A stretch of DNA of 64,000 nt, taken from NCBI GenBank assembly GCA_039917895.1, contig JBDSIO010000219.1, positions 78 through 64,077 of the forward strand, given 5' to 3'. The position numbers and the translations under genes are program-made. The stretch is from Fibrobacteria bacterium (lineage in GTDB: Bacteria > Fibrobacterota > Fibrobacteria > UBA11236). Below the pieces are notes generated by a model that was given only the letters and a program-made list of their open reading frames with translations, ran no database searches and was not told where the DNA came from. Shown here in pieces: positions 16,340-39,312 of this stretch. Position 1 is the first letter of the stretch, and every line of letters begins with the position of its first letter.

Positions 16340-17614
16340 GTGGTACACGCTTTGCTTCCTTGCGTTCCCATGGTTCCATCAGAGGGGAAAATCCCTGTAC
16401 TCGAGGCGGAACAACGCATTCAGGCGAGTCTGCGCATTCTACCCGCCGAGTCGGTGGAAATGACCGCTTGCGCGGGACGGATCCTACGGGAGCCGATAGC
16501 GGCCGACCGCGCCTATCCGCCAATGGACAAGATATGCATGGACGGGATCGCCATCCGGTTCGGCGACTATTCGGCGGGGACGCGGGAGTTCCGCGTCATC
16601 GGAATCGGCAAGGCGGGTGAGGAGCCGATTCGATCGGCCGGCGACGGCACCTGTTCCGAGGTGATGACGGGAGCACCCTGTCCTTCCGGATACGATTGCG
16701 TGATCCCGATCGAACAGGTCGTTTATTTGGGCGACTTCGCGAACGTGTTACCTGAGCGGTCCGTCAGGCCGGGTCAGAACGTGCACCGGATGGGAAGCGA
16801 TTGCGCAGCCGGCCGGTTTTTGTTGTCCGAAGGCCAGCGCCTCAACGCCGCAAGAATCGCGATCGCGGCATCAGTGGGCATGACAAGCCTCAAAGTGACC
16901 CGCCGTCCCGTGATCCGCGTAATCGCGACCGGCGACGAAATCGTTGGCCCGGGAAAGGGTCCGATGCCTTGGCAGCTAAGGCAATCCAACGCCCCGGCGC
17001 TCGCAGCCATGATGTCAGGCTTTGCGAGCGTGGAAACGCAATGGGTGCGAGACGATCCCGACGCGCTTCGCGAAAGCATCGGCTGGGGGCTGGAAGGTAC
17101 GGATTTGTTCGTCCTTTCCGGGGGGGTCTCCGCGGGGAAATTCGATTTCGTACCCGCCGCGCTCGAAAGCGCCGGAATCACGCGAAGTTTCCACAAAGCG
17201 GCGATCCGTCCCGGCAAACCGCTTTGGTTCGGCCTGACTTCGGACGGCCGGCCGGTATTCGGACTGCCCGGCAATCCCGTGTCCTTCCTGATTTGCCTGC
17301 GCAGGTTCGTATTGCCGTTGTTGCATGGGATGTCCGGCGCCGCGGCCCCTCTCCGCGCCTCCCGCATCCGTCTGGGTTCCGAAGTAAACGCGCTTCCGGG
17401 CCAAACCCACTTCCTACCCGTTCAATGCATGCGGGCGAATGACGGAGGGTCTATCGCCGTACCTTGCCCGACCAACGGCTCCGGTGACTTTTGCGGCCTG
17501 GGGAATTCGGACGGCTTCGTGGAAATCGAACCAGCCCCGCTTACCGGCTCCCGTCCGCACCGCTCACCTATCGTCGCAGGGGACTCCGTCCCATGGTTTC
17601 CCTGGGAAGGTTGA
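16340..17614 (+). CDS. moeA: Molybdopterin molybdotransferase MoeA
   Basis: MoeA N-terminal, MoCF-binding (GGVSAGKFDF) and C-terminal domains are present. Its stop overlaps the moaA ATG. Confidence 0.8.
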   Translation: MVHALLPCVPMVPSEGKIPVLEAEQRIQASLRILPAESVEMTACAGRILREPIAADRAYPPMDKICMDGIAIRFGDYSAGTREFRVIGIGKAGEEPIRSAGDGTCSEVMTGAPCPSGYDCVIPIEQVVYLGDFANVLPERSVRPGQNVHRMGSDCAAGRFLLSEGQRLNAARIAIAASVGMTSLKVTRRPVIRVIATGDEIVGPGKGPMPWQLRQSNAPALAAMMSGFASVETQWVRDDPDALRESIGWGLEGTDLFVLSGGVSAGKFDFVPAALESAGITRSFHKAAIRPGKPLWFGLTSDGRPVFGLPGNPVSFLICLRRFVLPLLHGMSGAAAPLRASRIRLGSEVNALPGQTHFLPVQCMRANDGGSIAVPCPTNGSGDFCGLGNSDGFVEIEPAPLTGSRPHRSPIVAGDSVPWFPWEG

Positions 17615-18571
17615 ATGCGCTTCCGAACGGTTCCGCGCCTTATTGACAAGCATGGCAGGGTGATGCGCAAACTCCGGGTTTCCCTCACCGATGCCTGCAA
17701 CTACCAATGCTTTTACTGTATGCCGGCCCGTCCCGTGTTCACGCGGAAGGGATTACTGCTTGAACCCAGCGAATACCGCGCCCTGTGCGGATCCCTGGTC
17801 GCCGCCGGAATCGAGGAGCTAAGGATCACCGGCGGCGAGCCAACGGTGCGTCCCGGGTTCGAAAGCATCCTGGAGAACCTGGGCGGGTTGCCGGTACGCC
17901 GCAAGGGTATCACCAGCAATGGGCACCTGTTGGCGGGGCATCTCCGATTTCTCAAAGCAAACGGCTGGAATAGCATCAATATCAGCCTCGACAGCCTGGA
18001 TCCGGGCCGGTTCGCGAGCATTACCGGGGGTGGGGATTTCCGCACCGTGATGGCTTGCATCGAAAAGGCGGCGGGACTGGGTTTGCGCGTCAAGGTGAAC
18101 AGCGTCGTGATGAGAGGTGTGAATGATGACGAGTTGGAGGATTTCACGGAATGGGGGGCGCGCTCCGGCATTGAAGTCCGTTTCCTGGAATACATGCGCA
18201 TCGGACCGGATCTCGCCCGTCACCCTCAGCGCTTCATGAGCGCGGAAGAAATGATTTCCGCCCTCCGCCGCAAATACCATCTGGAACCCTTGCGGGCGGC
18301 GCCGGATTCGACGGCGCTCCTCTTTGGCACGGATTCCGGCGCAAAGTTGGGATTCATCGCTTCGGAATCCAAGGCCTTCTGCGCGACGTGTTCCCGCCTC
18401 AGGCTTTCAGCCACCGGCGTCCTGCGCGCCTGCGTGATGAACCCGGAAGGGATTTCCATCCGCCATGCTTCGCCGGATGATCTGCCCGGAATCTTCGCGA
18501 AGGTGATGGGAATGAAACCGCTGATCCACCCCGATTCCAATCCGCTGCCGATGCATGCCCTGGGAGGATGA
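17615..18571 (+). CDS. moaA: GTP 3',8-cyclase MoaA (radical SAM)
   Basis: LRVSLTDACNYQCFYCMP radical SAM motif and a C-terminal MoaA Fe-S Cys triad (CATCSRLRLSATGVLRAC). Confidence 0.85.
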   Translation: MRFRTVPRLIDKHGRVMRKLRVSLTDACNYQCFYCMPARPVFTRKGLLLEPSEYRALCGSLVAAGIEELRITGGEPTVRPGFESILENLGGLPVRRKGITSNGHLLAGHLRFLKANGWNSINISLDSLDPGRFASITGGGDFRTVMACIEKAAGLGLRVKVNSVVMRGVNDDELEDFTEWGARSGIEVRFLEYMRIGPDLARHPQRFMSAEEMISALRRKYHLEPLRAAPDSTALLFGTDSGAKLGFIASESKAFCATCSRLRLSATGVLRACVMNPEGISIRHASPDDLPGIFAKVMGMKPLIHPDSNPLPMHALGG

Positions 18572-18660
18572 GAATGGCTGGCGGTTTGGGCATCCGGCGG
18601 TAGAGCCGGTCGCCGATAACGACTACGAACGCGGCGTAATGCCGCCAAGAAAGGAACGGA

Positions 18661-18921
18661 ATGATTGAGACATCGGTGGGATTGGATGTTACCGTGGAGT
18701 ACTTCGCGCTGTTCCGCTCGTGCGCCAGGAAAAGCTTGGAGAAAATCCATCTCGATGAAAGCGCGCCGGCCGCTTTGTATGATGCGTTGCGCGCGCGATA
18801 CCGGTTTCCCTTGGCTAAGGAACTCGTCCACCTGGTTGTCAACGACGAGTACTCGCCTTGGGATAAAGCGCTCCAGCCGGGGGATCGGGTCGTGTTCATT
18901 CCGCCCGTTTCGGGAGGTTGA
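18661..18921 (+). CDS. moaD: Molybdopterin synthase sulfur-carrier subunit MoaD
   Basis: 86 aa ending in Gly-Gly (PPVSGG). It overlaps the moaE start. Confidence 0.7.
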   Translation: MIETSVGLDVTVEYFALFRSCARKSLEKIHLDESAPAALYDALRARYRFPLAKELVHLVVNDEYSPWDKALQPGDRVVFIPPVSGG

Positions 18922-19442
18922 TCATGTTCCGTCTTACGGAAGCACCCATCGAAATCCGCGCCATGCGCGATACCTTGTCGAATCCCGCTTGCGGCGGCTT
19001 CGTCTCTTTCGAGGGCCGGGTACGCAACCACCATCAGGGTTCGGAAGTCGTTAAACTGGAATATGAAGCCTATCCCAAGCTGGCCATCTCCGAAGGGAAC
19101 CGGATCCTGGCGGCTCTCAAGCAGAAGTACGGACTTTCCGGCATCCTCTGCGTCCACCGCACAGGTGAATTGAGCGTAGGCGAGATTGCGGTCTGGATCG
19201 GGGCCATCGGCGTACACCGACGGGAATGCTTCGCGGCCGTCTCCGAGGCCATGTCGCTCATCAAAGAGTCGGTGCCCATTTGGAAGCACGAGTGGTACGC
19301 CAATGGGGACGATGAGTGGGTGCGCTGCAGCCACGAGCATGAGGAAGCCCCGGCGGACCAGGTCATTCGTCACGGACGGCCTCCGTCCGGTCCGCACCCG
19401 GTTGCTACGATAATGAAGGAGGACGGGCGACGCCGCTACTGA
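18918..19442 (+). CDS. moaE: Molybdopterin synthase catalytic subunit MoaE
   Basis: MoaE fold signature region (FEGRVRNHHQG...LEYEAYPKLA...IWKHEWY). Confidence 0.8.
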   Translation: MIMFRLTEAPIEIRAMRDTLSNPACGGFVSFEGRVRNHHQGSEVVKLEYEAYPKLAISEGNRILAALKQKYGLSGILCVHRTGELSVGEIAVWIGAIGVHRRECFAAVSEAMSLIKESVPIWKHEWYANGDDEWVRCSHEHEEAPADQVIRHGRPPSGPHPVATIMKEDGRRRY

Positions 19443-19714: not shown

Positions 19715-20405
19715 CTACTTGGCGCAGTCCGCTCCCAACGCGCAGTTCATGGCCTCGTCCTTCAGGGATTCGCCATCCACCCAATCGGCGGGGACGACTT
19801 GCAGGTTCATGCGCGCGCACTCCCGCGCGACCAGCTCCGCGACCCAGGCGAATACCGGCCCGTAGAACAGGCTGGCCTCCACGCCCGGACGCCGCGCGAT
19901 GGCACCGACGAAGCGGCCTAGATGCTCCCTCAGGAATTTACGTAAAGCGTCCCCCACGATTTCCGCGCCTTCGGCATCGTTCGCCTCGGTCAGGTGCACG
20001 TCCTTCATGAGCATCAGGGAGTAGAACTCCAGTTCGATGCCCACATGATCCAGCATTTCCATGCCGTCGAGGGACGCATCCAACTCGAATCCGAAGGCCC
20101 GGTAGAACCCGGCGATATCCGACAGCTCGGTACCCTTGGCCATGGCGCGGCGGCGGTCGTATTCGGTTTCATAGATGGGATTGGAATCCTTGCCGTTGTC
20201 GAAGATGGAGATGTATTCGGATTGCAAATCCCGGATCACGTCCTTGGAGGTCCATTTCAGGATCAGGGCCCGCAACGCATCGGGCATCCGGATGTCGCCA
20301 TCGTCCAGGAGAACCGGGACGTTTCCGGAAATGAAGTCCATGGGATAGGAGGTCAGGATCGAAGCCAGTACGAAGGGGGCGGGTCTGCTATCCATGTCAG
20401 TCATG
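19715..20405 (-). CDS. TorD/NarJ-family redox-enzyme maturation chaperone (NxrD-like)
   Basis: TorD-like helical protein. The internal Met start (MTDMDSRPAPF...) at 20405 is placed just downstream of the gamma subunit stop. The longer track ORF start (20572) would overlap the gamma gene by about 175 nt. Confidence 0.65.
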
Positions 20406-21257
20406 CTCGATTTTAAAGGGTTTCCAGGCCATGGTGATGGATTTGCGGGAGCCGACTTCGTCCGCGCCGCCTTGCCAGACCGCCAAGCCGAAAGAGGATC
20501 CTTCGCCCTCCACCAGCACCGATCCCCCAGGGCAGTTGATGGCGCGGGCGACGACCACGGTCCATTCCCCATCCTTCCAGGCCCCGCGGCCGGAGGAGTT
20601 GCCTCCGGCGGTCACCACGGAAGTCCCGAAGCCCTCGGCCATCATTTCGTCGACCGCATGCTTGCGGCTCGCCTGGGGATTTCCCGAGGCGACGGCCGGG
20701 GAGAAGGTTTCCGTTTCGGCTTGGGTGGCGGGTTTCAAACGGCCGCGATCGGGGAATTCGTTGGGATAGATATCCGATTGCAGGTTCGGATAAATCTCCT
20801 TTACCGTTTTCTTCCCAACCAGCTCGTCATGCTGGTATTGCGCCCGCCAATGGAAGATATGCACGGGATTCTTGGGGCCGCCCATGAAGATGGGCGGAGG
20901 CACGGCATTGTCCAGCACCGGGAATTCCAAGGCGACGGCGTCGGAAAACTCGGCCAGACGGCCCGCCTCCGAGGCTTCCCTATCGGCCCAGCGCAGCCGG
21001 TAAGCGATGTACTTGCCGTCGTGGACGATCTGGACCTTCACCTTTTCCGTTTCCGCCTTGTCCGGCTTGGGCTTGGCTATCATCTGCGCCATCAGCGCCA
21101 CCTCCGCCTCGGGAACGCCTTTCCAGTAATCCGCATCGACCTGCGGGGGCTTGGAAAGGTCCGCGGCGATTTTATGGACCTGGTAATCAGCGGCCCCGGC
21201 CAGGGAAAAGCAGAGCGTCGCGAAGGAAATCGAAGCATATGTCGTCAGCGGATTCAT
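20397..21257 (-). CDS. Gamma subunit of a type II DMSO-reductase-family enzyme (EB_dh heme-b domain; NxrC/EbdC/DdhC-like), soluble and periplasmic
   Basis: Sec signal peptide (ASISFATLCFSLAGAA), no TM anchor, and an EB_dh-type domain. It lies immediately downstream of the beta subunit. Confidence 0.65.
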   Translation of the reverse strand: MNPLTTYASISFATLCFSLAGAADYQVHKIAADLSKPPQVDADYWKGVPEAEVALMAQMIAKPKPDKAETEKVKVQIVHDGKYIAYRLRWADREASEAGRLAEFSDAVALEFPVLDNAVPPPIFMGGPKNPVHIFHWRAQYQHDELVGKKTVKEIYPNLQSDIYPNEFPDRGRLKPATQAETETFSPAVASGNPQASRKHAVDEMMAEGFGTSVVTAGGNSSGRGAWKDGEWTVVVARAINCPGGSVLVEGEGSSFGLAVWQGGADEVGSRKSITMAWKPFKIEHD

Positions 21258-21266
21258 CCCGTCTCC

Positions 21267-22397
21267 TCAGGGTGTGTTGTTTCTGGAAACCTTCAGCTTT
21301 TCGTCGAACGCTGCCCTCTCGAAAATCGGCTCCGTGACCGGTACCCGGACGATCTCGTCGCCCTTCTCGTCGAACCCCATGGCAATGCCGTCCTTCACCT
21401 TGAAGCCGTGCATGATGCGATCGGTGCTGCCGATCAGGACCATAAGGCCTTGGGCCACGGGATCGTTCTTAAGGTTCTTGTAGTTCTCGATGGCCTTGTC
21501 GACCTTCGGCCCGAACATCTGAAGCAGGTAGTCCCGGTCCGCATGGATGGGCGGGATGTAATAGATGTTCGGTTCCAGGCCCAGCTGCGGATAATACGGC
21601 AGGGCCAATTCCTTATTGTGGATCAGATAGTCGATGGGATTGTCCTGGCGGATGTTCCACGGCGGGTTCACAAACCCCATCACCCGGATCTTGCCGATGC
21701 AGTTCTGAACGCACATCGGCTGGTAGCCTTTTTCCACGGCCGGATAGCATCCAATGCATTTCTCGCTCGTCCGCGTATGCGTGTTATACATGGATTTCTT
21801 GTAAGGGCAGGCCCGCACGCATTCTCCGTAGCCCTTGCAGCGGCTCTGGTCGATTAGGACGATACCGTCCTCCTCGCGCTTGTAAATGGCCTTGCGCGGG
21901 CAGGAGGCCAAGCAGGCGGGATAGGTGCAATGCGCGCAGGTGCGCGGCAGGTAGAAGAACCACTTGTCGTGAGGCAGGTTGATTTCCTGGCCCGTGGTCA
22001 CGTTGCCCAGGCAATCATCCTCGCCGTTGTTCGGGTACATCCAGTCTTCGTCCTTGGGCGCGAAGTGGGCGACCACCTCGTTGGCGCCGGCCGCTTCGAA
22101 AATCGTCTTGCCGTAGTACGGTTCCTTCGCCTTCCAGGCCTGGGCACCCAGCTTTTCCAGCACGCGGACGTCCCAGGCCAACGGATAGGAGCCGTAGGGC
22201 TTGGTCTCCACGTTGTTCCAGAACATGTACTCCTGGCCCTTGCCGCTGGTCCAGGTGGTCTTGCAGGCCAGCGAACAGGTTTGGCAAGCGATGCACTTGT
22301 TCAAATCGAATATGATGGACCACTGCCGTTTGGGACGGGATTCCGCATAGGGATATTCCATCTCGCGCTGCAAGTGCCAATTCTTCACCTTTGCCAT
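21267..22397 (-). CDS. nxrB: Beta subunit (4 Fe-S clusters) of a NarH/NxrB-type molybdoenzyme
   Basis: CIACQTCSLAC..., CAHCTYPACLASCP, CKGYGECVRACP and CIGCYP motifs. 376 aa, 4 nt downstream of the alpha subunit. Confidence 0.85.
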   Translation of the reverse strand: MAKVKNWHLQREMEYPYAESRPKRQWSIIFDLNKCIACQTCSLACKTTWTSGKGQEYMFWNNVETKPYGSYPLAWDVRVLEKLGAQAWKAKEPYYGKTIFEAAGANEVVAHFAPKDEDWMYPNNGEDDCLGNVTTGQEINLPHDKWFFYLPRTCAHCTYPACLASCPRKAIYKREEDGIVLIDQSRCKGYGECVRACPYKKSMYNTHTRTSEKCIGCYPAVEKGYQPMCVQNCIGKIRVMGFVNPPWNIRQDNPIDYLIHNKELALPYYPQLGLEPNIYYIPPIHADRDYLLQMFGPKVDKAIENYKNLKNDPVAQGLMVLIGSTDRIMHGFKVKDGIAMGFDEKGDEIVRVPVTEPIFERAAFDEKLKVSRNNTP

Positions 22398-22400
22398 GCC

Positions 22401-25400
22401 CTATCCCTTCTTCTTCATGTAATGGCCCTTCAAGTATTCCTTCATGGCCTGGTTCTCGTAGGTGGGCCGGAAGCCCAGCGCCGCCGGGCGCCAAACTCCC
22501 TGCCCCCCCAAACCGCCCGGTTCGGCCTTGGTGATCTTCACGAAGGATTCGCGCGGCGCCCCGGTGGGGCAATGGATATCCGCCGCGAAACCCTTTTCGA
22601 TGCCTTGCCCGAACATGGTCTTGTGAACCAGGGTCTCGGTCATCTGCGTGGGCCGCAGCCATGCGCGCGTGGCGCTCTGGTGCGATCCGTACCGGTACAT
22701 GGACTGGTAGTTGGTTTCCGGGCTCTTCGCCAGGCCGTCGGGACGCGTCTCGGCCCCCTTCACGCTGCCGAAGGTGGAGCCGTACATGTTATGCCAGGTG
22801 CGCGTCACGCCACGGGGCGTTCCCGGGTAGTATCGCGCGCGCAGCATCAGCCGCGCGACCTTGTATTCCTCCGTGCCCGGCTTATGGCCGCGGAAGGGCC
22901 GATCCTCCGGATCCGCGTCGATCCAGACGTAGTCCCCGTCCTCCACGCCAATGGCCTTGGCGTCCAAAGGGTTGATGTCCACGTAACCTTCCACCACGGA
23001 GGGCATGCGCTTGTCATGGCGGTAGACGTCGCCGAAAGGACCGAACCAGATGGCGTTGATGTCCGTATCCACCGGGGTGGAATGCGCACCGTGCCGGTAC
23101 TTGGGAGTATGGTAGATATGCGTATAGTTCTTGAGCTTGAGCGGGTGCTCGCTCTTTAGCATCTCTTCCGCCGACATCATCACGTTGCGCGCTTGGCGGG
23201 TTTCGGAACTGACGTCCTTTTCGTCGAATCCGTAGTCCTTGGGCGACTTGAAACGCATGGCTGCGTGCTTTTTGCCGACGATGACGTTGGGCTCGTGCGG
23301 GGTGGAATCGACCGGCTCCCGGTAAATAACCATGTTCTCGCCGCCCTCGATGAATTCGACTTCGGGCCGGTAGAACTCGAGTCGCCCGGATTTGGTGTGC
23401 CAGGGTTTTTCCGACTTCGCCTGCTCATACGACGAGATGCGGGGATAGGTGCGGTTGTTCATCAGGGTCGGTATGCCCTGCTTGGCCTTGTCCTCCATGT
23501 CCCCGATGGTGTTTCCCTTCAGCGTCGCGGACGCGCTGACGATGCGTTGCAGATATTCGGAGGTGTTGTTTTCCAAAACGAACTTCCACATGTCGGACAT
23601 GCGCTTATCGCCCGTGACCTTGGCCATGGCATTGGCGACGCCGGCGATGATCTCCACGTCCGCCCGGGTGTCGAATATCCGCTCCATCGGGGTACGCGGG
23701 AATACCTGCAGAAAGGGGTTGGAACAGGATCCGCACATGTCCGGGTGCTTGAATTCGGCCCAGGAATCGCAGGCGAAGACCAGGTCGGAGTATTCGCAGG
23801 AACCGGTCCACCACCAGTCCGAATAGGCGATGAACTCCAGCTTCGGCAGGGTGTTGTTGACCACGTCGTAGTGCCATTTGATGTTGCCGATCACGGAGTT
23901 GGAATTGTTCAGCCACATGGCCTTGGTCGGCGCCGGCATATGGCCATCGCCGGTGAACATCTTGTCTCCCACCTTCAAGGGGCGATCCCCGTAGTTGAAA
24001 TAGTGGAGCGATTCGTAATGGCTGTATTTCTTGACCGTGGGCTTTCCGCCCGCTTCCAGCTGGAGGTTGAAGGGGTCCTCGGCCGCATAGACCGGCTCCC
24101 CGCCGATCAGGGCAGTACGGTAATTGCCCGCGTAGCTGCCTACGTTGCCACCGGGAAAGCCGACATTGCGGGTGAGCGCCGCCACCATGAAAATGGCGCG
24201 GTCCTTGAGATCGGCATTGAAGAACTGGTTGGGACCCATGCCGCATGCGAAGATGGTTTTTTCCTTGTTCTTCGCGATCTCCTTCGCCAGCTTGATGATG
24301 CCCGTGGCCGGGCACCCGGTGATTTGCGAGACCAGCGCCGGCGTCATGTTGGCGTCGAGGTATTCCTTGGTGAGGCTGTATACCGTCCGGACCTCGACCT
24401 CGCTTCCGTCGATGAGCTTGACGCGCGCCCGGTGCTTCAACTCCACGGAAGCTTTGAGCGCCTTGGCATGGTCGCCGTAGTCGTCCCGGGTTACGGGAAC
24501 GTAATTCTTCGTCTTCTTGTCGAAGACGACGAAGGGCTTGAAGTCGCCGCGCATGGATTCCGGCACGAACTGGGCGGCCTGCTCCATGCCGGGCAGCGGC
24601 TTTTCGCCTTTCTGCATGAACTTGACCGAGGTCAATTCCGGATCCTTATATCCAGCGATGAACTCGTCCGGCCGCAACGGCTGCAACGTGTCCAGTCGGA
24701 CCAGGAAAGGGAAGTCGGTCTTGTTCTCTACGAAGTCCTTGTCGTAGAGGTTTCCGGCCATGATGACCTGGCACAATCCCAAGGCGAACGCCGGATCCGT
24801 GCCGGGGCGGATGATCAGGACGTCGTTGGCCTTGGACGCCGTGGCGCTGTACTCCACGGTGACCGCAACCGTTTTGGTCCCCTTCAGCCGCGCTTCGGTC
24901 ATCCAATGCGAATCCGGCATCTTGGTCGTGATCCAATTCATGCCCCACACGATGAGGAGCTTCGAATGCTCCACGGTGAAAAGGTCGAAATCATTGGTTT
25001 GCTGTCCCGTGACCATGGGATGCCCGGGCGGCAGATCCGTATGCCACGAATAGGAGTCCCAACCCCGGCCCCCGGTGGCCTTGTCCGGACCGACGCCGCG
25101 GATCTTGGAATCCAGAAGCGCGAGCATGTTGGCGAATCGGTACAGCCCGAAAATGCGCGTCGCGCCAAGGAAGGCCATGCCGCCGCGGAATTTCAGGGTC
25201 TGCACGCCCGCGCCTTCCATGGAGTGGATCATGGCAGGATCGTAATTTTGCGCCTTGAGGTACTCCTCCCCCTGCTTGCCGGAATAGGCCGTTGCGATGT
25301 TGGTCATGGTCTTGGCCGCGTACTCATAAGCCTGGTCCCAGGGAAGCCGAAGCCATTTATCCTTGCCGCGTTGGAAATATTTCGCATCCGGTTTTCCCGT

Positions 25401-25880
25401 CCCGGCGTCGCGGGGGTAACCGGCGTCGGCCCATTCCTTGAAGCCGCGCCGGATCATGGGCGCTTTGACGCGCCGGTCTCCGTAGAACCTGCGAACCAGG
25501 GCCAGGCCCTTTTGGCAGATGCGCGGATCCCAGCGGTGGGAACTCTGATTGCCGTACAGATCCACGGCCTTGCCGTATCCGTAGCTAGGACCGATGCGTT
25601 GCAGTACACCGTTCTTGACCTTGGCCTTGAGCAGGCAATTGTGGGTATCGTTGGGCGCGCACAGGAAGACGAATTCCGAATCATGCTCGAAAATGTTGCG
25701 ATAGGTCTTCTCCCAATCCCGATCGGGATATGCGGCCAGGGGATTTTCGATTGCGGTTGGCTTGAAATAGCGCAGCGGGGTCGCATCCGCCCATTTGGCC
25801 GCGGCCAGCGAGCCGCCGGCGATGCCCATGCCCTTGATGAAGCTGCGGCGACTGACGCCTTTGTTCTTATCCTCGTTCAT
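22401..25880 (-). CDS. nxrA: Alpha subunit of a Tat-exported NarG/NxrA-like Mo-bisPGD enzyme (periplasmic nitrite oxidoreductase / periplasmic Nar type)
   Basis: 1159 aa. Twin-arginine signal [19 protein letters not shown]. The N-terminal Fe-S region reads C-x3-D-x3-C-x39-C (an Asp variant). The large size and periplasmic targeting fit NxrA of Nitrospira/anammox/Nitrospina rather than cytoplasmic NarG. The direction of catalysis cannot be read from the sequence. Confidence 0.8.
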
Positions 25881-26227
25881 GCTTTTTCCTCCAAATGCGT
25901 ATTGAGCCGGGCGGGTTCGCCGGTAAGGATGGAATAGACGCGGTCCGCGGGCCAGGTTTCCGAGCGATCGACAATCAGTCCTCCGGATGGATCCGAACGG
26001 ATGGCGAAGTACTGGTCAGCAATCCCGCCTGCAAGTCCAGGGCGGTAACTGCGCGCCCTTAGGCCCTCGGGATGCGACTCCACCATGACGGTTCCGGATC
26101 CGGCGAGCCGTTCTTCTCCCAGCGGATAATGTGAGATGCGTCCGATGTCCACGGGTCCGGCAGGAGCGGCCTGCGGCGACGCGTGGAATGCACCGAACAG
26201 AAAATCCCTGCGGTCGATGGGTTTCAT
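25877..26227 (-). CDS. Small hypothetical protein with a twin-arginine-like N-terminus, translationally coupled to nxrA
   Basis: 116 aa starting MKPIDRRDFLFGAF..., with no Cys. Its stop overlaps the nxrA start (ATGA). Codon usage is normal. Confidence 0.4.
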   Translation of the reverse strand: MKPIDRRDFLFGAFHASPQAAPAGPVDIGRISHYPLGEERLAGSGTVMVESHPEGLRARSYRPGLAGGIADQYFAIRSDPSGGLIVDRSETWPADRVYSILTGEPARLNTHLEEKA

Positions 26228-26230
26228 GCT

Positions 26231-27064
26231 TCAGCCACCTGTGGTCCCCAATACAGCCTGGGGGGTCACGTCCTTGACGGCCAGACCCGGGAATTTCTCC
26301 TTGATCATCCCGTCGAATTTATGAGCCAGCAGCCCTCCGTTTCCGCACAGCGGATCCGTGGACATGCCGAATTCGAAAAACAGCGTTCCTTCGCGAAAGC
26401 CCTTCAAGACCAGGGCGATTCCCGTGGTGCGATGAAAATAGGCCGCGATTTCGAACAGCTCCATCGCCATATGCTCCGGGACCGGGCCCCAGGCCGGGGA
26501 ATCGGCGCCCGGCGCCGCAGCTTCGGTGTAGAACACGTCCAGGCAATTGGCATCGCCATGGCGCGCGCTCGCATGTCTCACGAAACGTTCCTTTTCCCCA
26601 AGGCCCATGACCAAACCATCCATGGCTTCGCGCCAATAGTCGCATGCATACGAACCGACAGACCGGCAGAATCCGCACTCGTTGCGGGTGAGTACGCATG
26701 CGCCGGCGCGTTCGCTCCAATCTCCTTTGGCACATGGGATTCCAGAGACCTCCAACAGCCCGCGGAAGTCCCCGGTCTCGAAAGTCAATCCGAGCCTTTT
26801 GGCGAAGCCCAGCGCAAGTTTCCTGCTGTTATCGAAAACCCCCCGCAGAACGGCGTTTTGCGCTCCGGTCGACGAGGAACGGGTAGCGGCTCCGTCCACG
26901 GCACACACGGCCTCCAGGAGTCGCTTTTCCGAATCGGGATCGGCTGCTTCGGGAATGGATGCCTCAGGGCAACCGGACCTCAGGGCGGAAAGCCGAGCCG
27001 ATTGCCACCGCCGGTTGAAGTCCTCGATCTCGTTTTGCGGAACGATTGGGGGAAATTGCATCAT
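26231..27064 (-). CDS. Cysteine-rich hypothetical protein (putative metal/Fe-S binding); first gene of the nxr operon
   Basis: 278 aa from MMQFPPIV. Cys cluster ...GIPCAKGDWSERAGACVLTRNECGFCRSVGSYACDYW. It ends 3 nt before the small Tat protein gene. I prefer the internal start at 27064 to the track start at 27160 because it shortens an unconserved N-terminus. Confidence 0.4.
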   Translation of the reverse strand: MMQFPPIVPQNEIEDFNRRWQSARLSALRSGCPEASIPEAADPDSEKRLLEAVCAVDGAATRSSSTGAQNAVLRGVFDNSRKLALGFAKRLGLTFETGDFRGLLEVSGIPCAKGDWSERAGACVLTRNECGFCRSVGSYACDYWREAMDGLVMGLGEKERFVRHASARHGDANCLDVFYTEAAAPGADSPAWGPVPEHMAMELFEIAAYFHRTTGIALVLKGFREGTLFFEFGMSTDPLCGNGGLLAHKFDGMIKEKFPGLAVKDVTPQAVLGTTGG

Positions 27065-27443
27065 TGTCCTTATCGAGCAATTCCGAGGCCATTGCCATTT
27101 ACGCGCAATCGGGTCCGATTTCGCGGCGCGAACCGTAGTTCGGAATCCCCAATCCGGCATCTTGGCAAAATCGGCAATGAAACCGTGACATTGTTACCGG
27201 TAACCTGTACGTTTCGTTGGGATCGGCGCACAACCTCCAAAGCGGAAAAATCCGTTTGCATACCGCTGCCATCCGCGATTCTGAAAATGGGCGGCCGCCA
27301 TAGGGCGATTGGGAATAAAATCAAAGTTTCGATCTTTTTAATTTAAAACGTTATCGTGATCGCACTATTTGCAATCGACCCGGACGGGGATCCGGCCGGT
27401 CGGAAAGCATTCCCAACAATAACCCCGTTCCGCTGTTGTTGCC

Positions 27444-27457
27444 TTGATCCGGATCAA
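27444..27457. promoter_or_regulatory. Perfect Crp/Fnr-family box TTGATCCGGATCAA
   Basis: TTGAT-N4-ATCAA palindrome in the divergent region between the Crp/Fnr-family regulator gene and the nxr operon. Confidence 0.4.
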
Positions 27458-27595
27458 GTCCGACCCGGCCTTCTTTCGCGTTGCACCGACGGAGCGCTGC
27501 TTTTGGACATAAGCTTCCGGATTGCCAAAATGACCGTAGATAAAGCGGTCCGGGTGGCCTCGGCGCGGCTACCTCTTTTAAGAGAGGAGGTGCCA

Positions 27596-28288
27596 TTGGA
27601 AATCATCAGAAGGATTCTGAATTCCGCACCCCTGTTCGCCGGACTGGGCGCGAGCGGCTGCGGTGAACTCGCGCCTCTGTGCCGCCTGAAGCCGCTGGCG
27701 AAGGATCAGGTTCTGTTCCGGCACGGAGAAAAAAGCCATGCCTTCTTCATCGTGCATTCCGGAGCCATAAATCTCCACCGTCTCGATTCCAAAGGGCGGG
27801 AAATCGTGCTGCGCCTGTTCCACCCTGGCGATTCCCTGGCCGAAGGCACGCTTTGCGGTCTCGCTGAGTATCCCGCCCATGCCAAAGCCGTGGAAGCAGG
27901 CCAGGTCCTGTCCATCGACCGGATCGGCTTCCTCCGCTACATGCAATCGCATCCGGACATGCCCATTCGGATCCTGGATTCAATCGACAAACGGAATCGT
28001 TACTTCATCGAGCAACTGGAAAGGCTTCAGGGACGGGAATCGGGTGACCGCCTGGTCGCCTGGCTGCTGGATAGCGCGCGGCAAGCGCACCCTGCCGGCG
28101 GGCATTCCATTTCCCTGCGACATCCGAAGAAGGTGCTGGCGGCCGAACTCGGCGTCACTCCGGAGACCCTGTCCCGGTCCTTCGCAGATTTGCGGGACAA
28201 GCGGATTATCACCGTGGAAGGCCGCGACATAACCATCACCGATATGGATGCCCTGCGCCGATCCGGCTGCGGCGCCAGGGAAACCTGA
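27596..28288 (+). CDS. Crp/Fnr-family transcriptional regulator (Dnr/NnrR-like; no N-terminal FNR-type Cys cluster)
   Basis: cNMP-binding beta-roll plus a C-terminal HTH (VLAAELGVTPETLSRSF). A TTG start at 27596 is preceded by AGAGGAGGTG. The alternative ATG at 27530 is possible, but the track start at 27356 is not supported. Confidence 0.65.
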   Translation: MEIIRRILNSAPLFAGLGASGCGELAPLCRLKPLAKDQVLFRHGEKSHAFFIVHSGAINLHRLDSKGREIVLRLFHPGDSLAEGTLCGLAEYPAHAKAVEAGQVLSIDRIGFLRYMQSHPDMPIRILDSIDKRNRYFIEQLERLQGRESGDRLVAWLLDSARQAHPAGGHSISLRHPKKVLAAELGVTPETLSRSFADLRDKRIITVEGRDITITDMDALRRSGCGARET

Positions 28289-28312: not shown

Positions 28313-28897
28313 TCAGCCCGATTTGCACCAAAGCGTATCGACATAGCGCTTCGAGCGCGCGAGGATGCGTTCCACCCGCGCCAGACCTTCGGACCCGTGG
28401 CTTGCGTTCCAATCGCTATCCACGCGATGAAACGCCTCGCCCAACAGGTCGAGTTCCGTCGGGCCGAGGATTTCGCGCGCGATGCCGAACACGCAATGGT
28501 TCTCCTTCTGGATATGCGCGCGCAGAAGGCGCGCGTAGGCGTCGCATACCAAGGCGATTTCCTTCCAATCCGGACCGCCCGGCGCAAACGCCGGGTCGAG
28601 CAACGACCCCGCCAGGGAAACCAATTGGCGTCCTTTCACATGCTCCAGCCGCATGGTTCCGGTGGGTCCGCCGATGACCGGCATCCCCCGCATTTCCAGG
28701 GCGGGAAACAGGTATTCTTCTTCCTTGGCATGATGACTAACGTCCGTGAACTCCCTGAGGAACCACAGAATTTCGGTGAGCAGGTCCCGGTCCGAAAAGG
28801 CGCCGACGGAAGCCGCCTCGGCAATGGCCTCGAGTCCGTCCAATACGCATTCCACCTTGCGGTGCTCTTCCTTCAGCATTTCGATTGGATCAGACAC
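28313..28897 (-). CDS. Hemerythrin-domain (HHE cation-binding) protein
   Basis: 194 aa with H/E pairs typical of hemerythrin-like domains (EEHRKVE, HHAKEE, LEHVKGRQ...). It is the last gene of the long minus-strand array. Confidence 0.6.
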   Translation of the reverse strand: MSDPIEMLKEEHRKVECVLDGLEAIAEAASVGAFSDRDLLTEILWFLREFTDVSHHAKEEEYLFPALEMRGMPVIGGPTGTMRLEHVKGRQLVSLAGSLLDPAFAPGGPDWKEIALVCDAYARLLRAHIQKENHCVFGIAREILGPTELDLLGEAFHRVDSDWNASHGSEGLARVERILARSKRYVDTLWCKSG

Positions 28898-28910: not shown

Positions 28911-30236
28911 TCAGAAATTGAAGGTGGGCATTACGTAGAGGTTGTATCCCGGCCGGTAATCCTGGTCCGGACCCAAGCCCGCGGCCGCCAGCGCGACGGC
29001 GCCGTCACCGGGTAGAAAGATCCCCCCGCCGAAATGGATGTTCGCCTTGGGATGGATGGTGATCTGGATTTCCAGGTCGGCTTCCTGTCCATAGGGTTCG
29101 TCAATGGCGGCCGGCGCATTCTGAGGGAGAAAGAAATGGTATTGCGGCTTCACCTGGACGCGAGCCGCCCCGGCGGGTCCTCGCACGCAGGCGAAATCGC
29201 CGTCAAGCCGAATGTCCAAGACGCCATAGGCGGGATTAACGACGAAGTAATCCATCCAGCCGAAATAGGCATGGGCAAAATAATAGGAGGCCCGGTAGGC
29301 CGTGGCCCGGTCGTCGGACGGATCGTCGTCACCGCTCATGATGTCCAGTCCCGCATTCACCTTGTGCGCCCCCAACACGGCTCCGGCGCGCAACGCCAAT
29401 TGGAAGGCCGCGCTCGTCAGGTTTCGCCCGGCGGATAGCTCTCCGGTCTGCCAGATGAATTCCTCTTCGTAAACGAACTGTCCCAAGCGGCCGGCCAGCC
29501 GTTCTCCGGCATAGACGAGATCGTAATTGCGTACGCTTAGGCCTCCGTAGCTCCCGGCCAGGCGCGCCTGGTCATAAAACATGAACGCGTCGGCCTGATG
29601 GCCATCCGCGAGTTTGCGGTTGTAGAACAGCCCGGTCAGCAGCAGGTGGTCGTCGACGGCTTTTTCCGCGGAATCGCGCACCAAATAAGCCAGGGCGGTC
29701 AGGTTGTCCGGACCCGCATCGTAGTTGGCCGAAACGCCGTCGAAGGAGCGGGAGGTCGCGCTCCATTCCAACGTACTCAAGAACCGGCCAGACCCGAGCG
29801 AAAGCTTTTGGCGGCCCAGCGCGGCCGTAACGGGACCCTCCTTTAAGGTGGCGTAGCCCTGCAGCAGGTCCATGCCTTTGCTGTTGCCCACCGAGGCCGC
29901 TGCCGGATTGGTCGCGGGCACGGACGGCTCAGACCCCATGTATCGGGAGTCTTGGATTTCCAGGCGGATACCTGTCCGTTCAAAAGGAGCGCCCGAATAG
30001 GCCAGACGCGACCTCAAAAAAGTGTTCAGGAAAGGCTTGTTGGCATCGTCGTCGCGAACAGCCTTCTGATCGAATTCCGTGCGCGTTCGGAGCTGTCCGG
30101 AGAAGCCGAAGGCGGCGGGTGGAGGCGGCGCGAACGGGGACTCCCCAGGGGGCGCGGCGGCAATCGGACCCGCGAAAATCGTCAGCACCGCGGCGATGGC
30201 CGGGGTCCGGATCGGAACAGTCGTAATGGATTTCAT
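28911..30236 (-). CDS. Outer-membrane beta-barrel protein (alginate-export/porin-like)
   Basis: Signal peptide. Amphipathic beta-strand pattern. C-terminal ...YVMPTFNF with a terminal Phe typical of OMPs. Confidence 0.55.
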   Translation of the reverse strand: MKSITTVPIRTPAIAAVLTIFAGPIAAAPPGESPFAPPPPAAFGFSGQLRTRTEFDQKAVRDDDANKPFLNTFLRSRLAYSGAPFERTGIRLEIQDSRYMGSEPSVPATNPAAASVGNSKGMDLLQGYATLKEGPVTAALGRQKLSLGSGRFLSTLEWSATSRSFDGVSANYDAGPDNLTALAYLVRDSAEKAVDDHLLLTGLFYNRKLADGHQADAFMFYDQARLAGSYGGLSVRNYDLVYAGERLAGRLGQFVYEEEFIWQTGELSAGRNLTSAAFQLALRAGAVLGAHKVNAGLDIMSGDDDPSDDRATAYRASYYFAHAYFGWMDYFVVNPAYGVLDIRLDGDFACVRGPAGAARVQVKPQYHFFLPQNAPAAIDEPYGQEADLEIQITIHPKANIHFGGGIFLPGDGAVALAAAGLGPDQDYRPGYNLYVMPTFNF

Positions 30237-30498: not shown

Positions 30499-33400
30499 TC
30501 ATCCATGGCCGTGGAAATTCCCGGAAGCGGACCAATGGGTCATCGCCTGATCGATGTCCGCGGCATCCACCCGCGTCCTACCCTCGCCCTTGGCGCGGCG
30601 TTCGATTTCCTTCATTACCATGGGACGGATGAAGTCCGGGATGCGGGAAGTGCGGGCCGTGGCCGCTTCGCTCCACTCCAGCTCCGGCGCCATCTTGGCG
30701 GAGCCATCACCCCAGCTCCCGTATTTTCCGTCCATGATCTCCAGATCCACCACGTCCGCTCCTCCCGCGCGCGCCCATTTCTCGACGCGGCAGCGCGTCA
30801 TGGTGCGCATGAAGCCTTCCGGTACCCGTTCCAGCCTTTGCAGGGCTTCGGGTTTCCAGGCCAGGGTCTTGAAAGCGGAAGACTTGGCCTGGGCGCGCTT
30901 TTCCGCGCTCAAGCGGACGAAATGCCCGGTGCCGCAATTGGCGCAGACCGTCGGTTTGGCGCCGTCCAGGATAATGCCGCACAGGTGGCATTCCCAAGGA
31001 GCGATCTCCGAGGCATCGGAGGCTTCCGGCGTTGCGCTTGCCTGGGCGGAAGTTCGGGCCGGATCCGCGGAAGGGGTCGCGGCATGCGGGTTGGCGCCTT
31101 GGCCATGGGCATGCGGATTGACGCCATGGGCGTGGATATGACCATGCGCCCCGGGGTCTCCTTGGCCCGATCCCGTCATGCTTGCATGCATCTTCTCCCG
31201 GGCCTTGCCCAGCCCCGCTTCCGCCACCTCCAAGGTGATTTCCTTCGTTCCGGAGTTCAGGGCGTGTTCCTCCACCATGTTTTTCGCGGCCTTGCGCATG
31301 AATCCATCCGGCACCCGTTCCAGGCGCTTGACGGCATCTTCCGTCCAGGCCGGTCCTCCGAAGGCGTCGGAGGATATCGCCCCGGGCGCCGCTTCGGCGG
31401 CGGATACGGGGGCTGCGGGAGCAAGATCCGCGGTAGTGGGAACGGCGGTTGGCGCAGCGCCGATGCCGGCGGCGCGCAATTCGGCCTCCACCATCTCCAG
31501 GGTCACGGCCGTGATACGTTGGGTCAATGCCCGTTTTTCCAGGCGGTTGCGGATCTGCGCCGTCACCGTCGCATCCCCGGACTTTTCCAACAGGGCCAGC
31601 GCGGATTTCTCCCACATCAATTGCCGATCCCCCAGAGTTTCCAAGGACTGCCCTTCGCTGACGATGGCGCTTTCCAGCAGCTTGAACATATGCCCGCCCA
31701 TGCCGCAGATAGGGCAGGACTGGGGCCGGGATCCATGATGGACGTGGCCGCAGGCCTGGCATTTGAAGCTCAAGGCGATCTTGTCGTGGGAATCGCGCTC
31801 CTTGCCCTCGTCCGTGTCCACGATGCCCATGCGGGCCAGCGCAGCGGGAGGCAGCAGGGTTTTCAGGGCCGCGTTCAGGATCGACTCCGTGACCACGGTA
31901 TGGCCTTCGGCCACGCAATAGTTCTGGATCGCTTTCATCGCCATATTCTGCGCCATGGCCGGCACCCGTTGCATGCGGGCCTTGGCCTCGGTGGTCCAAC
32001 TCACGGTCTCCTCGGCCTGGAATTCCACCGGAGGCTTGGCCTTGGAATCCACCACCAATATGTTGCAGGGCGCCAGGCGGCACAGGTTCTCGGTGTTGCC
32101 GCCGATGTCCATGTCCTCGTCGCTATGGAAGCCGATACGGCCCACCACCAGCAGCCAGGGCGGCTCAGCCTTGACGAGCTGCAGGATCTTTTCGAAGGGT
32201 TTGCCATCCAACAAACGGATCTCGATGGCTACGCCCGCCTCTTCGGCCAGCCGCTTGGCGATGTTCAGGTAGGACTGGTAGATCTTGGCCAGCCCCGAGT
32301 CGATGATGTCTTCATGTAGCTTCTCCTGCTCTTCGAACTTGAAGACCTTACGCGCCTTTTCGGTGAGGGTCTTGTTCAGGCTTTTGAACATGGCATAATG
32401 GAAATAGGGGTCGAAGGCGGATACCGCCAGTACTTTCTTGTCCAATGTCTTCGCGAGCCGCATGGCCCGCTGCAGGCCGCCCCAGCTTCGGATGCTGCCG
32501 TCCAGGCAGACTATGATGGTGTCGGAGACGTTCTCTTCCACGGACATGCGCGTAAGCAGGACATCGCGGCGGACGCGGCGCAGCATGCGCTCGGCGACGG
32601 TGCCCAGTTGGGAATTGCCCACGCGGCCGACGCCGTGCGCGCCCAGGGCCACGAGATCGTAATCGTTGGCCGCGATGTCCTCGGCCATGGCCTTCCAATT
32701 CTTGCCTTCCAGGCTCACGGCGGCGAACTCCAGGTTATCGGTCTTGCAAGCGCCGGACATGGCCTCCAAATACGAGTCCGTGATCAGCTCCAGCCCTTTG
32801 GTGATCAGGCTGTCGTGGATCTTGCGCTGGCGGTTAAGTTCCTTCTCCTTCTGGAACTCCTCCGGAAGTCCGCCTTCCATGGCGCGGAAACGGTTGTCGT
32901 GCATCTTAGCCGCATACACGTGGCTGCCGATCATGCGGGCGCCTTCGCGCTTGCCGATCAGCATGGCCGTGCGCATGGCCTCGTTGGAAGGGACGGAACT
33001 GTCCAGGCCCACGTAAATGCGCGAGTATTTCCAGTCTACCGCCTTGGGCGCGGCTTCCCCATCGGGATGGGAGCCGGGCGCCTGGAAGGAGGGAACCGTT
33101 GCAGGGACGGCCTCAGCGGCCTCGGCAGCTATGGCGGTAACGGTGGCCGGGGCGGCCGCGGCGGCTATTGCAGACGGGGCGGAAGGGGCGGTTGCCGCAG
33201 CCGCCTCTAGGGTCGCGGCAGTTGCGGTCCCGGCGTCCTTCGGCCGCTCCAAAACCTCGCGGGCCTCCTTCATCAGTTCCATGGTGATGCGCGTGAACCC
33301 GCGCCCCTTGGCGTATTTTTCGATCTGCTCGGTGATGAACTGGCGGATCATGCCCGGGGCCCGGTTGATGGATTCAATGGCCTCGGGCTCCCATTCCATA

Positions 33401-34152
33401 CCGCCTTTGGAAGGCAGCATCACGATCTTACCGTCCTTTTCCGGAACCCGGAAAGGAGTCTTGTCGTGGATGGATGAGATCCAGAATACATAGGCGTAGG
33501 GGAATTCGTGTTGGGCGATATGGAAGCTGTCGTACTCGAACATTACGCGCGCCAGCTTCACGAATTCATGTCGCGGATCTTCCGGACCGATCACCTCCAC
33601 GGCCGCGTTGACCTGGAAGCTGATGTAGTCCGGGGCGTTGCCGGTATAGTGCAAAGCCGCCAGGGGCGTGGCCGAGATATTCCTGAAGGTGGTCTTTTCG
33701 AAAATCTCGAGGCTGCTCAGCGATCGGTAGTCGACCTTCTCCCGATCGAAATAGAAGCTGGAAACGGCTTTCAGCCTTTCCTGCAACGATTCCTGCCAGG
33801 GACGGCCGCGGGTGCGTTCAATCGTCTCCTTGAACAGGTTGACGTAGGATTCCAGGTATTCCCGCTTGGGCAGGAAGCCCACGCCTTTGTTGCCGCAATT
33901 GAACGGAAAGGTCTGGCCGCGCGCCTGGGTGATCATCACGGGCAGGTGCGAAGTGAAAAAGGCGGGATTCCCCTTTCCCAACAGCTTGTCGTACATGGCG
34001 CGGCGGCCTTGTTCGATCCACTCTATGTACCGCTCCGGCAGGCTTTCCATCGGCAGGTCGACCGGTCCCTCGGCCAGTTCCACGCGAAGGCGATCTCCTG
34101 CGACTACGACCTTGGGCAGGCCCTGAAATTGTCTGGCCGTATTCTGCTGCAT
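30499..34152 (-). CDS. 1217-aa multidomain protein: N-terminal ~270-aa unknown domain, six PCP_red-like repeats (protochlorophyllide-reductase ChlB C-terminal-domain-like), tandem universal stress protein (Usp) domains, two rubredoxin-like zinc ribbons, and Ala-rich and His-rich linkers
   Basis: Repeats of the form (L/M)xW(T/E)xEAxxRLxR(V/I)PxFxRxxxxxxxExxAxxxGxxxITxExxxxA occur six times (e.g. VSWTTEAKARMQRVPAMAQNMAMKAIQNYCVAEGHTVVTESILNA; PAWTEDAVKRLERVPDGFMRKAAKNMVEEHALNSGTKEITLEVAEAG). The Usp motifs are IYVGLDSS...GAHGVGRVGNSQLGTVAERMLRR and IIVCLDGS.... The zinc ribbons are CQACGHVHHG...CPICG and CHLCG...CANCG. There is an HGHIHAHGVNPHAHG His-rich segment. Confidence 0.7.
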   Translation of the reverse strand: MQQNTARQFQGLPKVVVAGDRLRVELAEGPVDLPMESLPERYIEWIEQGRRAMYDKLLGKGNPAFFTSHLPVMITQARGQTFPFNCGNKGVGFLPKREYLESYVNLFKETIERTRGRPWQESLQERLKAVSSFYFDREKVDYRSLSSLEIFEKTTFRNISATPLAALHYTGNAPDYISFQVNAAVEVIGPEDPRHEFVKLARVMFEYDSFHIAQHEFPYAYVFWISSIHDKTPFRVPEKDGKIVMLPSKGGMEWEPEAIESINRAPGMIRQFITEQIEKYAKGRGFTRITMELMKEAREVLERPKDAGTATAATLEAAAATAPSAPSAIAAAAAPATVTAIAAEAAEAVPATVPSFQAPGSHPDGEAAPKAVDWKYSRIYVGLDSSVPSNEAMRTAMLIGKREGARMIGSHVYAAKMHDNRFRAMEGGLPEEFQKEKELNRQRKIHDSLITKGLELITDSYLEAMSGACKTDNLEFAAVSLEGKNWKAMAEDIAANDYDLVALGAHGVGRVGNSQLGTVAERMLRRVRRDVLLTRMSVEENVSDTIIVCLDGSIRSWGGLQRAMRLAKTLDKKVLAVSAFDPYFHYAMFKSLNKTLTEKARKVFKFEEQEKLHEDIIDSGLAKIYQSYLNIAKRLAEEAGVAIEIRLLDGKPFEKILQLVKAEPPWLLVVGRIGFHSDEDMDIGGNTENLCRLAPCNILVVDSKAKPPVEFQAEETVSWTTEAKARMQRVPAMAQNMAMKAIQNYCVAEGHTVVTESILNAALKTLLPPAALARMGIVDTDEGKERDSHDKIALSFKCQACGHVHHGSRPQSCPICGMGGHMFKLLESAIVSEGQSLETLGDRQLMWEKSALALLEKSGDATVTAQIRNRLEKRALTQRITAVTLEMVEAELRAAGIGAAPTAVPTTADLAPAAPVSAAEAAPGAISSDAFGGPAWTEDAVKRLERVPDGFMRKAAKNMVEEHALNSGTKEITLEVAEAGLGKAREKMHASMTGSGQGDPGAHGHIHAHGVNPHAHGQGANPHAATPSADPARTSAQASATPEASDASEIAPWECHLCGIILDGAKPTVCANCGTGHFVRLSAEKRAQAKSSAFKTLAWKPEALQRLERVPEGFMRTMTRCRVEKWARAGGADVVDLEIMDGKYGSWGDGSAKMAPELEWSEAATARTSRIPDFIRPMVMKEIERRAKGEGRTRVDAADIDQAMTHWSASGNFHGHG

Positions 34153-39153: not shown

Positions 39154-39312
39154 ATTTCCTGGTGTTTATTGCGGAACCGGGAAGCTTCGGTTTAAGGATG
39201 GTTGGGCTCATAAGCTTCAATCTATCCGCGGCCGTTGCTTCGCGGATTACGCGAAAAATGCCAGCTTGGCATGCATTCCGGCCCCATTTTGGTCCTTATG
39301 GCACGCATTGGG

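Follow-up and report, generated by a model that had tools for sequence, protein, structure and literature searches.

Periplasmic NXR/Nar-type enzymes are large multi-cofactor complexes whose cytoplasmic assembly is completed before Tat export. The timing of such export is understood mainly from NarJ, DmsD, TorD and NapD of E. coli. These REMPs (NapD and the NarJ/TorD/DmsD group) bind signal peptides and tie cofactor loading to Tat export; the fold of NapD is ferredoxin-like. A Tat signal has the consensus S/T-R-R-x-F-L-K near its N-terminus, an h-region of some 12-20 uncharged and moderately hydrophobic residues immediately behind it, and a c-region with an AxA signal-peptidase site; under a TATFIND-type rule, at least 13 uncharged residues follow the twin-arginine motif. 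The solved NXR of Kuenenia (PDB 7B04) presumably consists of NxrA, NxrB and NxrC only.

The Rieske subunits of Rieske/cytochrome b complexes are themselves Tat substrates and carry an RRxFL motif before their membrane anchor. In arsenite oxidase, the Rieske small subunit AioB carries a [2Fe-2S] cluster and, through its own complete Tat signal, exports the signal-less AioA. To our knowledge, NirD-type proteins have no [2Fe-2S] cluster. The proteins of TIGR02811 ("formate dehydrogenase region TAT target") are shorter than 70 aa and combine a full signal with a distinctive motif at the C-terminus.

The twin-arginine (RR) pair of a Tat signal is essential for binding to TatC and is not crucial for binding to TorD/DmsD, whose recognition relies mainly on the h- and c-regions (PMC3316669). 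NarG retains a helical remnant of a Tat peptide, without an h-region, to which NarJ, a member of an all-helical family, binds; this remnant serves as a chaperone-docking handle in molybdoenzyme maturation (PMC10609526).

Here we describe a small gene, called Y, in a 64,000-nucleotide stretch of DNA (the window) from a Fibrobacteria bacterium (assembly GCA_039917895.1, contig JBDSIO010000219.1). Y is a real, conserved and previously undescribed gene, tightly coupled to nxrA. It lies on the minus strand (25877..26227) and encodes a protein of 116 aa, predicted to adopt a Rieske fold without a cluster and carrying an N-terminal twin-arginine motif. The product starts MKPIDRRDFLFGAF and reads MKPIDRRDFLFGAFHASPQ...; it is identical to the hypothetical protein ABIW76_10295 of a Fibrobacteria bacterium MAG.

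Y is part of an operon read from the minus strand in the order X, Y, nxrA, nxrB, nxrC and a NarJ-family chaperone gene, with molybdenum-cofactor genes close by. nxrA (22401..25880) encodes an NxrA-like protein of 1159 aa, a catalytic subunit of the type II DMSO reductase family whose Tat signal is complete. It is followed by an nxrB-like gene for the Fe-S subunit (21267..22397, minus strand; 376 aa; Fer4_11, TIGR03478) and by an nxrC-like gene (20397..21257, minus strand; 286 aa) whose product includes an EB_dh domain (PF09459, E=1e-27) and has a hydrophobic N-terminus, Sec-signal-like as read by eye. The last gene, nxrD (19715..20404, minus strand, with a start at 20404 or 20395), specifies a NarJ/TorD-family chaperone of about 228 aa (PF02613, E=1.8e-15). 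Another ORF of 1159 aa (46263-49742), examined in case it were a second nxrA, is unrelated. No riboswitch or other RNA was found in the window with Rfam, and a scan for promoters and terminators between 19000 and 28500 gave sites no more frequent than in shuffled sequence. A Crp/Fnr-type regulator adjoins the operon both here and in Bdellovibrio. This neighbour suggests that in these non-nitrifier lineages the enzyme may reduce nitrate in anaerobic respiration rather than oxidize nitrite.

Upstream of Y, gene X (26231..27160, minus strand) ends 3 nt before the Y start. Its longest ORF specifies a Cys-rich conserved protein of 309 aa, and the likely start is M34 at 27061, giving 276 aa as in P0064. 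Homologues of X form 98 clusters, with named sources among Oligoflexia, Bdellovibrionaceae and Bdellovibrio sp., and share five invariant Cys and one invariant His (alignment A4). Searches with X gave no match in Pfam and no sequence match in the PDB, profile searches included. One homologue of 380 aa (P0143), considered as a possible X-Y fusion, is an X protein with a low-complexity insert.

The sequence-only reading had proposed a separate 116-aa ORF whose stop overlaps the nxrA start, and both features are present in the DNA, on the minus strand. The overlap, read directly as a 4-nt ATGA at 25877-25880 (reverse complement), joins the Y stop TGA (25877-25879) to the nxrA ATG (25878-25880). 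The Y/nxrA junction (25877..25892, minus strand) also includes the nxrA Shine-Dalgarno sequence GGAGGA (25887-25892), located inside the final Y codons 6 nt 5′ of the nxrA ATG and coinciding with the codons of the acidic C-terminal "EE" of Y. Among seven related loci, five have overlaps (4, 14, 14, 4 and 34 nt) and two have short gaps (2 and 9 nt); GGAGG precedes nxrA in most of those examined. That reading made no mention of the strand, the ligand-less Rieske fold, the conserved partner X or the separate NarJ-type chaperone in the operon.

An ATGA overlap and a Shine-Dalgarno sequence embedded in the 3′ end of Y are what might be expected of a leader or upstream ORF which sets nxrA translation, one of the three roles initially offered for this ORF. 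The 116-aa product, however, has a conserved and confidently predicted fold, its residues are kept across homologues with 25% identity, and the protein is retained at junctions that vary between a 34-nt overlap and a 9-nt gap. Moreover, the window copy of Y and that of a related locus (L001) have 56 identical residues, and 23 of these 56 are specified by different codons; such synonymous changes at conserved residues imply that conservation acts on the protein level. Nor is Y a mis-split N-terminus of NxrA: the NxrA of the window is full length, aligning end to end with Kuenenia NxrA (7B04_B, E=1.8e-277) from residue 9, and has a complete Tat signal of its own. We therefore reject a leader or a mis-split NxrA as highly improbable. 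X and Y have a lower GC3 (0.63-0.67) than nxrABCD (0.77-0.82), an observation which is ambiguous.

Relatives of Y are not readily detected. A word-index search with Y alone retrieved just two, with 63% and 46% identity, both on short contigs which retain the X-Y-nxrA order and a 4-nt overlap with nxrA. A HMMER profile search of 1.84 billion representatives gave 54 representatives at E<=1e-3, 35 of these at E<=1e-10, and the alignment of the family (A2) includes 55 sequences. Almost all members are 75-158 aa long. Most come from metagenome contigs and taxonomic labels are sparse; the named sources of the X-Y/nxrA module are Fibrobacteria, Oligoflexia and Bdellovibrio-type genomes. The window copy and all 55 members were scanned against Pfam and NCBIfam, and no family matching Y was found. 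A profile scan of genome contigs returned one false positive (L002), an asparaginase-like protein matched through its genuine Tat signal alone, and the sole match of a metagenome scan with alignment A3 was a duplicate of P0003. No description of the small protein was found in the literature on nxrA with Rieske or twin-arginine proteins, on Fibrobacterota NXR or on Bdellovibrio/Oligoflexia NXR (including PMC6606698, PMC6050957 and PMC5317091).

Loci of Y members and X homologues were scored by tblastn and with the X and Y HMMs. The context set includes the P0002 contig (gene order only) and ten contig groups (L001/L003, L004-L007, L008/L009, L010/L011, L012, L013, L014, L017, L018/L019 and L020/L021). 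The sequence-only reading had left conservation at other nxr loci to HMM searches, and these place Y 5′ of nxrA, between X and nxrA, in all 11 other Y-carrying lineages sampled; together with the relatives found by profile search and the tight junctions, this confirms a separate small gene in front of nxrA. The order X-Y-nxrA-nxrB-nxrC-nxrD is found wherever the contig is long enough. In L004/L005, L017 and L020 the cassette is directly followed by moaA and further Moco genes, and in L018/L019 by a TauE-family gene; there the opposite strand carries moaE and a ThiS-like gene. Both L017 (an Oligoflexia MAG) and L020/L021 have a tatA-family gene that precedes X by 3-4 nt. X is directly upstream of Y in every locus, or of nxrA where Y is missing. 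The latter arrangement occurs in Bdellovibrio sp. (L015/L016), where X is followed by nxrABCD, with nxrA 22 nt after X, and no Y was found anywhere in the 20-kb locus.

This context bears on the possibility that Y is a non-redox structural subunit of the mature periplasmic enzyme, binding NxrA in the cytoplasm much as AioB binds AioA and then exported together with folded NxrAB, in which case its RR would be a second TatC-binding determinant or would serve for docking only. Tight coupling of Y to nxrA would suit such a stoichiometric subunit. On the other hand, NxrA has a complete Tat signal of its own in the window as well as in each of the seven loci examined, a hitchhiking subunit would need no invariant RR, and the enzyme occurs without Y in Bdellovibrio sp., an absence more readily expected of an accessory protein than of a core subunit. 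Y also diverges faster than any enzyme subunit: across lineages, identity to the window proteins is 25-46% for Y, 31-64% for X and 65-93% for NxrA. The presumed NxrA/NxrB/NxrC composition of 7B04, of which chain B is here confirmed as NxrA, also speaks against a further subunit. A structural subunit is the main alternative reading, though on the unlikely side.

The body of Y resembles a Rieske domain in its predicted structure. An AlphaFold2 model obtained with the 55-sequence alignment has a mean pLDDT of 85.5 and replaces an earlier model from three sequences (pLDDT 67). It includes a short helix (residues 6-12), a low-confidence linker, with low pLDDT at residues 11-20, and a beta domain of eight strands (pLDDT 88-97). 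The Rieske-type beta domain (25904..26155, minus strand; residues 25-108) includes the conserved stretches IG..DFP.G, ESLPEGLRARS, G.L.V, WP and V.S..TGEP (alignment A2). Its best structural match is Kuenenia stuttgartiensis kuste4569 (PDB 9rk4), which Foldseek independently ranked first (E=2.2e-3, probability 1.00), ahead of Rieske ferredoxins; kustd1480 (9rk3) is a further match. A sequence-profile search of the PDB also retrieved kuste4569, as its sole and non-significant match (E=0.41).

The domain carries none of the CxH and CxxH ligands of a Rieske cluster. Not one of the 55 members has both a CxH and a CxxH box, and their alignment shows no conserved Cys or His column; the window copy has no Cys at all, nor have 20 of the 55. 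In addition, none of the 55 matched the Rieske Pfam families (PF00355 and PF13806) at E<=1. The modelled fold and the absent ligands thus indicate that Y is a Rieske-fold protein without a [2Fe-2S] cluster.

The twin-arginine motif (26186..26218, minus strand; residues 4-14, IDRRDFLFGAF, with the RR codons at 26207-26212) is conserved better than any other part of the family and follows the pattern [MLI][SDN]-R-R-[DE]-F-[LF]-x-G-x-[FL]. RR occurs at residues 6-7 in 47 of 47 members with an intact N-terminus, which rules out a chance match, and F at +3 in 37 of these. P0010 and P0022, which at first sight have no RR, are truncated gene calls with MGRRSFLFGAF and MGRRDFMLGAF in frame upstream. 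The linker which follows (26156..26185, minus strand; residues 15-24, HASPQAAPAG) is uncharged in the window copy. In relatives it is 15-52 aa long, mostly charged (for example RRDFFVNTVKRAVNKVRVHELKAE and RREFLKGFVPKLKEEEK) and not conserved, and many members have Lys, Glu or Asp 3-9 residues from RR. Within the 26 residues after RR, the family has a median longest uncharged run of 8 and a median of 6 charged residues; a run of at least 13 occurs in 3 of 48 members, including the window copy.

These data qualify the initial description of a small protein with a twin-arginine consensus and a Tat signal. The S/T-RR-x-F-L part of the consensus is present, whereas the h-region is weak in the window copy, with 18 uncharged residues after RR and a mean Kyte-Doolittle value of 0.68, and is missing in most relatives; NxrA signals from the same loci have uncharged runs of 11-22 and mean values of 0.9-1.5. 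Since RR leads, across the family, into a charged linker that varies in length and not into an h-region, "small Tat-signal protein" is not an appropriate label. As a family property, the RR of Y is an orphan motif without an h-region in most members. The window copy and its closest relative, P0002, might be weak Tat signals.

It is in these two proteins that an ordinary, independently exported soluble periplasmic Tat substrate with a cleavable signal finds its best case. The window copy has S/T-RR-x-F-L, its 18 uncharged residues and a possible A-P-A site (as P0001), and P0002 has an uncharged linker of 25-28 residues and an A-F-A site. Possible cleavage sites are limited to these two members, however, and 45 of 48 have no uncharged stretch of at least 13. 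No AxA signal-peptidase site is conserved in the linker columns of A2. Signal-peptide models give no score to the window copy, which was matched neither by Pfam TAT_signal (PF10518) nor by TIGR01409; across the family PF10518 matched 3 of 55 members, all at E>=0.23. A cofactor-less beta domain of 90 residues would also have no obvious need for Tat. Independent export therefore appears improbable for the family, and a helper in assembly or targeting is a likelier role for Y than that of an ordinary secreted protein. RR is nonetheless invariant across homologues with only 25% identity, which argues against a mere vestige and suggests that the motif must still bind something.

Comparison with the described systems gives Y a mixed set of affinities. 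The bc-type Rieske subunits kuste4569 and kustd1480 are its best structural match; in contrast to these, Y has no CxH/CxxH ligands and no transmembrane segment or h-region after RR, and its gene has no adjacent cytochrome b gene and sits in a molybdoenzyme operon. Like aioB, the Y gene lies immediately 5′ of the gene for a Mo-bisPGD catalytic subunit (in the window and in 11 other lineages); unlike the arsenite oxidase pair, NxrA has its own full signal and Y lacks both cluster ligands and h-region. In being a small Rieske-fold partner of a large nitrogen-oxyanion oxidoreductase, Y would resemble NirD and the Rieske_2-type proteins (e.g. PDB 3c0d). It shares with the NarG remnant peptide a twin-arginine-derived helix without a functional h-region, and a NarJ-family gene is present in its operon. 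The remnant of NarG, however, is located on the catalytic subunit and has a degenerate RR, whereas that of Y is on a separate protein and has an invariant RR, and the NxrA signal is complete.

The role proposed for Y, a small operon-encoded cytoplasmic accessory, would be that of the REMPs, although their folds are unrelated to that of Y and they bind a signal peptide whereas Y carries a signal-like one. Y is all-beta in its model and has no Pfam match; the all-helical PF02613 domain is not found in it and belongs to the operon gene at 19715-20404. Like TIGR02811 members, Y is a small twin-arginine protein adjoining the gene of a Tat-exported molybdoenzyme; TIGR02811 matched 1 of the 55 members, at E=0.06, and not the window copy. 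In its model, Y comes closest to a bc-type Rieske domain or to AioB; in its mode of action it would be nearest to a REMP-type accessory, or to the remnant peptide of NarG acting in trans. Y is thus an undescribed family which recombines known elements and lacks the defining features of the Tat-signal, Rieske, NarJ/TorD/DmsD, NapD and TIGR02811 groups.

Our tentatively preferred explanation, to which we give a little less than an even chance, is that Y is a small accessory protein of the periplasmic NXR/Nar-like molybdoenzyme and that its RR helix aids assembly or export. Of the roles suggested by the sequence-only reading, an escort or proofreading factor and a co-exported subunit are both still viable, and the leader ORF is set aside in view of the fold and the protein-level conservation. 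Four features lead us to lean towards an accessory factor: the flexible tether, a tatA gene next to X in two contig groups, the presence of X at every Y locus and the fact that Bdellovibrio does without Y. In the other direction, the operon already includes a NarJ-type chaperone, so that a second proofreading factor is not obviously needed, and tight coupling to nxrA is also expected of a stoichiometric subunit.

We infer the location, partners and role of such an accessory protein as follows. Y may derive from a Tat-dependent, membrane-anchored bc-type Rieske protein which lost its anchor and its cluster, its N-terminus perhaps retaining only the receptor-recognition part of the Tat signal on a flexible tether. 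Through translational coupling it would be made in step with NxrA. Its Rieske-like body would then bind NxrA (or NxrAB) before export, or X, and the tethered RR helix would dock on the TatBC receptor or on the NarJ-type chaperone NxrD. In this way Y could help to set the timing or the targeting of export for an enzyme already folded and loaded with its cofactors, working together with X, here taken to be cytoplasmic and with five invariant Cys. Docking on the chaperone is weakened as an option since TorD/DmsD-type chaperones read h- and c-regions, which are absent from Y.

A more specific form of the accessory role, which we consider rather unlikely as it stands, would make Y the representative of a new class: a trans-acting carrier of an orphan RR which, rather than being a classical substrate, would act as a cytoplasmic adaptor or checkpoint handing this very large molybdoenzyme of several subunits to the Tat translocase. 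Its body would hold the folded NxrA/NxrAB or X, and its h-region-less RR helix would bind to TatC or act as a competitor for the NarJ-type chaperone; the module would also include X and, in certain lineages, a dedicated TatA.

X and Y form a conserved two-gene module in front of nxrA which is new to Pfam and NCBIfam. Y itself is an unfamiliar pairing: a Rieske fold, to judge from its model, that has lost its cluster, and a twin-arginine motif that is invariant yet has no hydrophobic core. Should TatBC or the chaperone prove to be the docking partner of the RR helix, Y would provide a tractable case of a Tat recognition motif operating in trans and of a redox subunit recycled into an assembly factor. 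Both Y and X merit annotation as NXR-associated families and are relevant to heterologous expression of these enzymes.

The gene directly 5' of Y, the 116-aa Rieske-fold protein without cluster ligands, encodes the Cys-rich protein X (26231-27160, minus strand), a member of a family which has not been described before. This family includes about 98 clusters at 90% identity, carries the motif C.YWREA.DGLV.GL.E and has five invariant Cys and one invariant His residues. X has no match in Pfam or the PDB and no signal peptide. One possibility is that X acts in maturation and binds a metal or an Fe-S cluster. Its position is constant: immediately 5' of Y or, in loci devoid of Y, of nxrA.

Such a locus occurs in Bdellovibrio sp. 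(GCA_039810385.1; loci L015/L016, 10001-10800), where X is followed by 22 nt and then by nxrA. No Y gene is present across the whole 20-kb locus, so this lineage either has lost Y or can do without it. Upstream lie the gene for a Crp-family regulator and others resembling modABC.

In other cases Y is present and its 5' end was missed by gene callers, as in two loci from other lineages (L010, 2312-2707; L018, 8822-9226). Several database entries (P0010, P0022) are truncated in this way, as probably are the other members of 75-93 aa. The RR motif is encoded in frame upstream of the shortened calls and is missing from the deposited proteins. Third-position GC is 0.67 for X and 0.63 for Y (25877-27160) compared to 0.77-0.82 for nxrA, nxrB, nxrC and nxrD of the same operon (19715-25880). 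This clear difference may be due to weaker expression of both accessory genes or to an evolutionary history unlike that of the nxr genes.

The operon is flanked by genes for a divergently transcribed Crp/Fnr-type regulator (27356-28288, plus strand) and, on the minus strand, a hemerythrin-domain protein (28313-28897) and an Alginate_exp-family outer-membrane porin (28911-30236), an arrangement consistent with the uptake of anions and with regulation in response to oxygen or NO. A gene for a "conserved nitrate reductase-associated protein" (PF09655; 15665-16165, minus strand) adjoins moeA, moaA and moaE (16340-19442) and thus forms with them a molybdoenzyme support island beside the operon. Three consecutive c-type cytochrome genes (38131-41654, minus strand) possibly specify proteins that exchange electrons with the NXR-like enzyme; in the product of one of them (39313-40845, minus strand), an EB_dh (NxrC-like) domain comes after a cytochrome c region. 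A pair of minus-strand genes of uncommon architecture is situated a few kb away from the operon: one encodes a 1217-aa protein (30499-34152) that contains a rubredoxin-like domain in addition to five PCP_red domains and two Usp stretches, and the adjoining one a radical-SAM/SPASM protein (34204-35493) also ending in a C-terminal PCP_red domain. A second ORF (46263-49742, plus strand) matches NxrA exactly in length (1159 aa). The two proteins are unrelated (BLASTP E=1.8) and the ORF is not another copy of nxrA.

In an Oligoflexia MAG (L017, 9785-9997) and two related contigs (L020, 1753-1968; L021, 820-1035), a TatA/B/E-family gene (PF02416, 70-71 aa) lies 3-4 nt upstream of X. The gene order is tatA-X-Y-nxrABCD and the enzyme cassette in these three loci therefore appears to possess a Tat component of its own.
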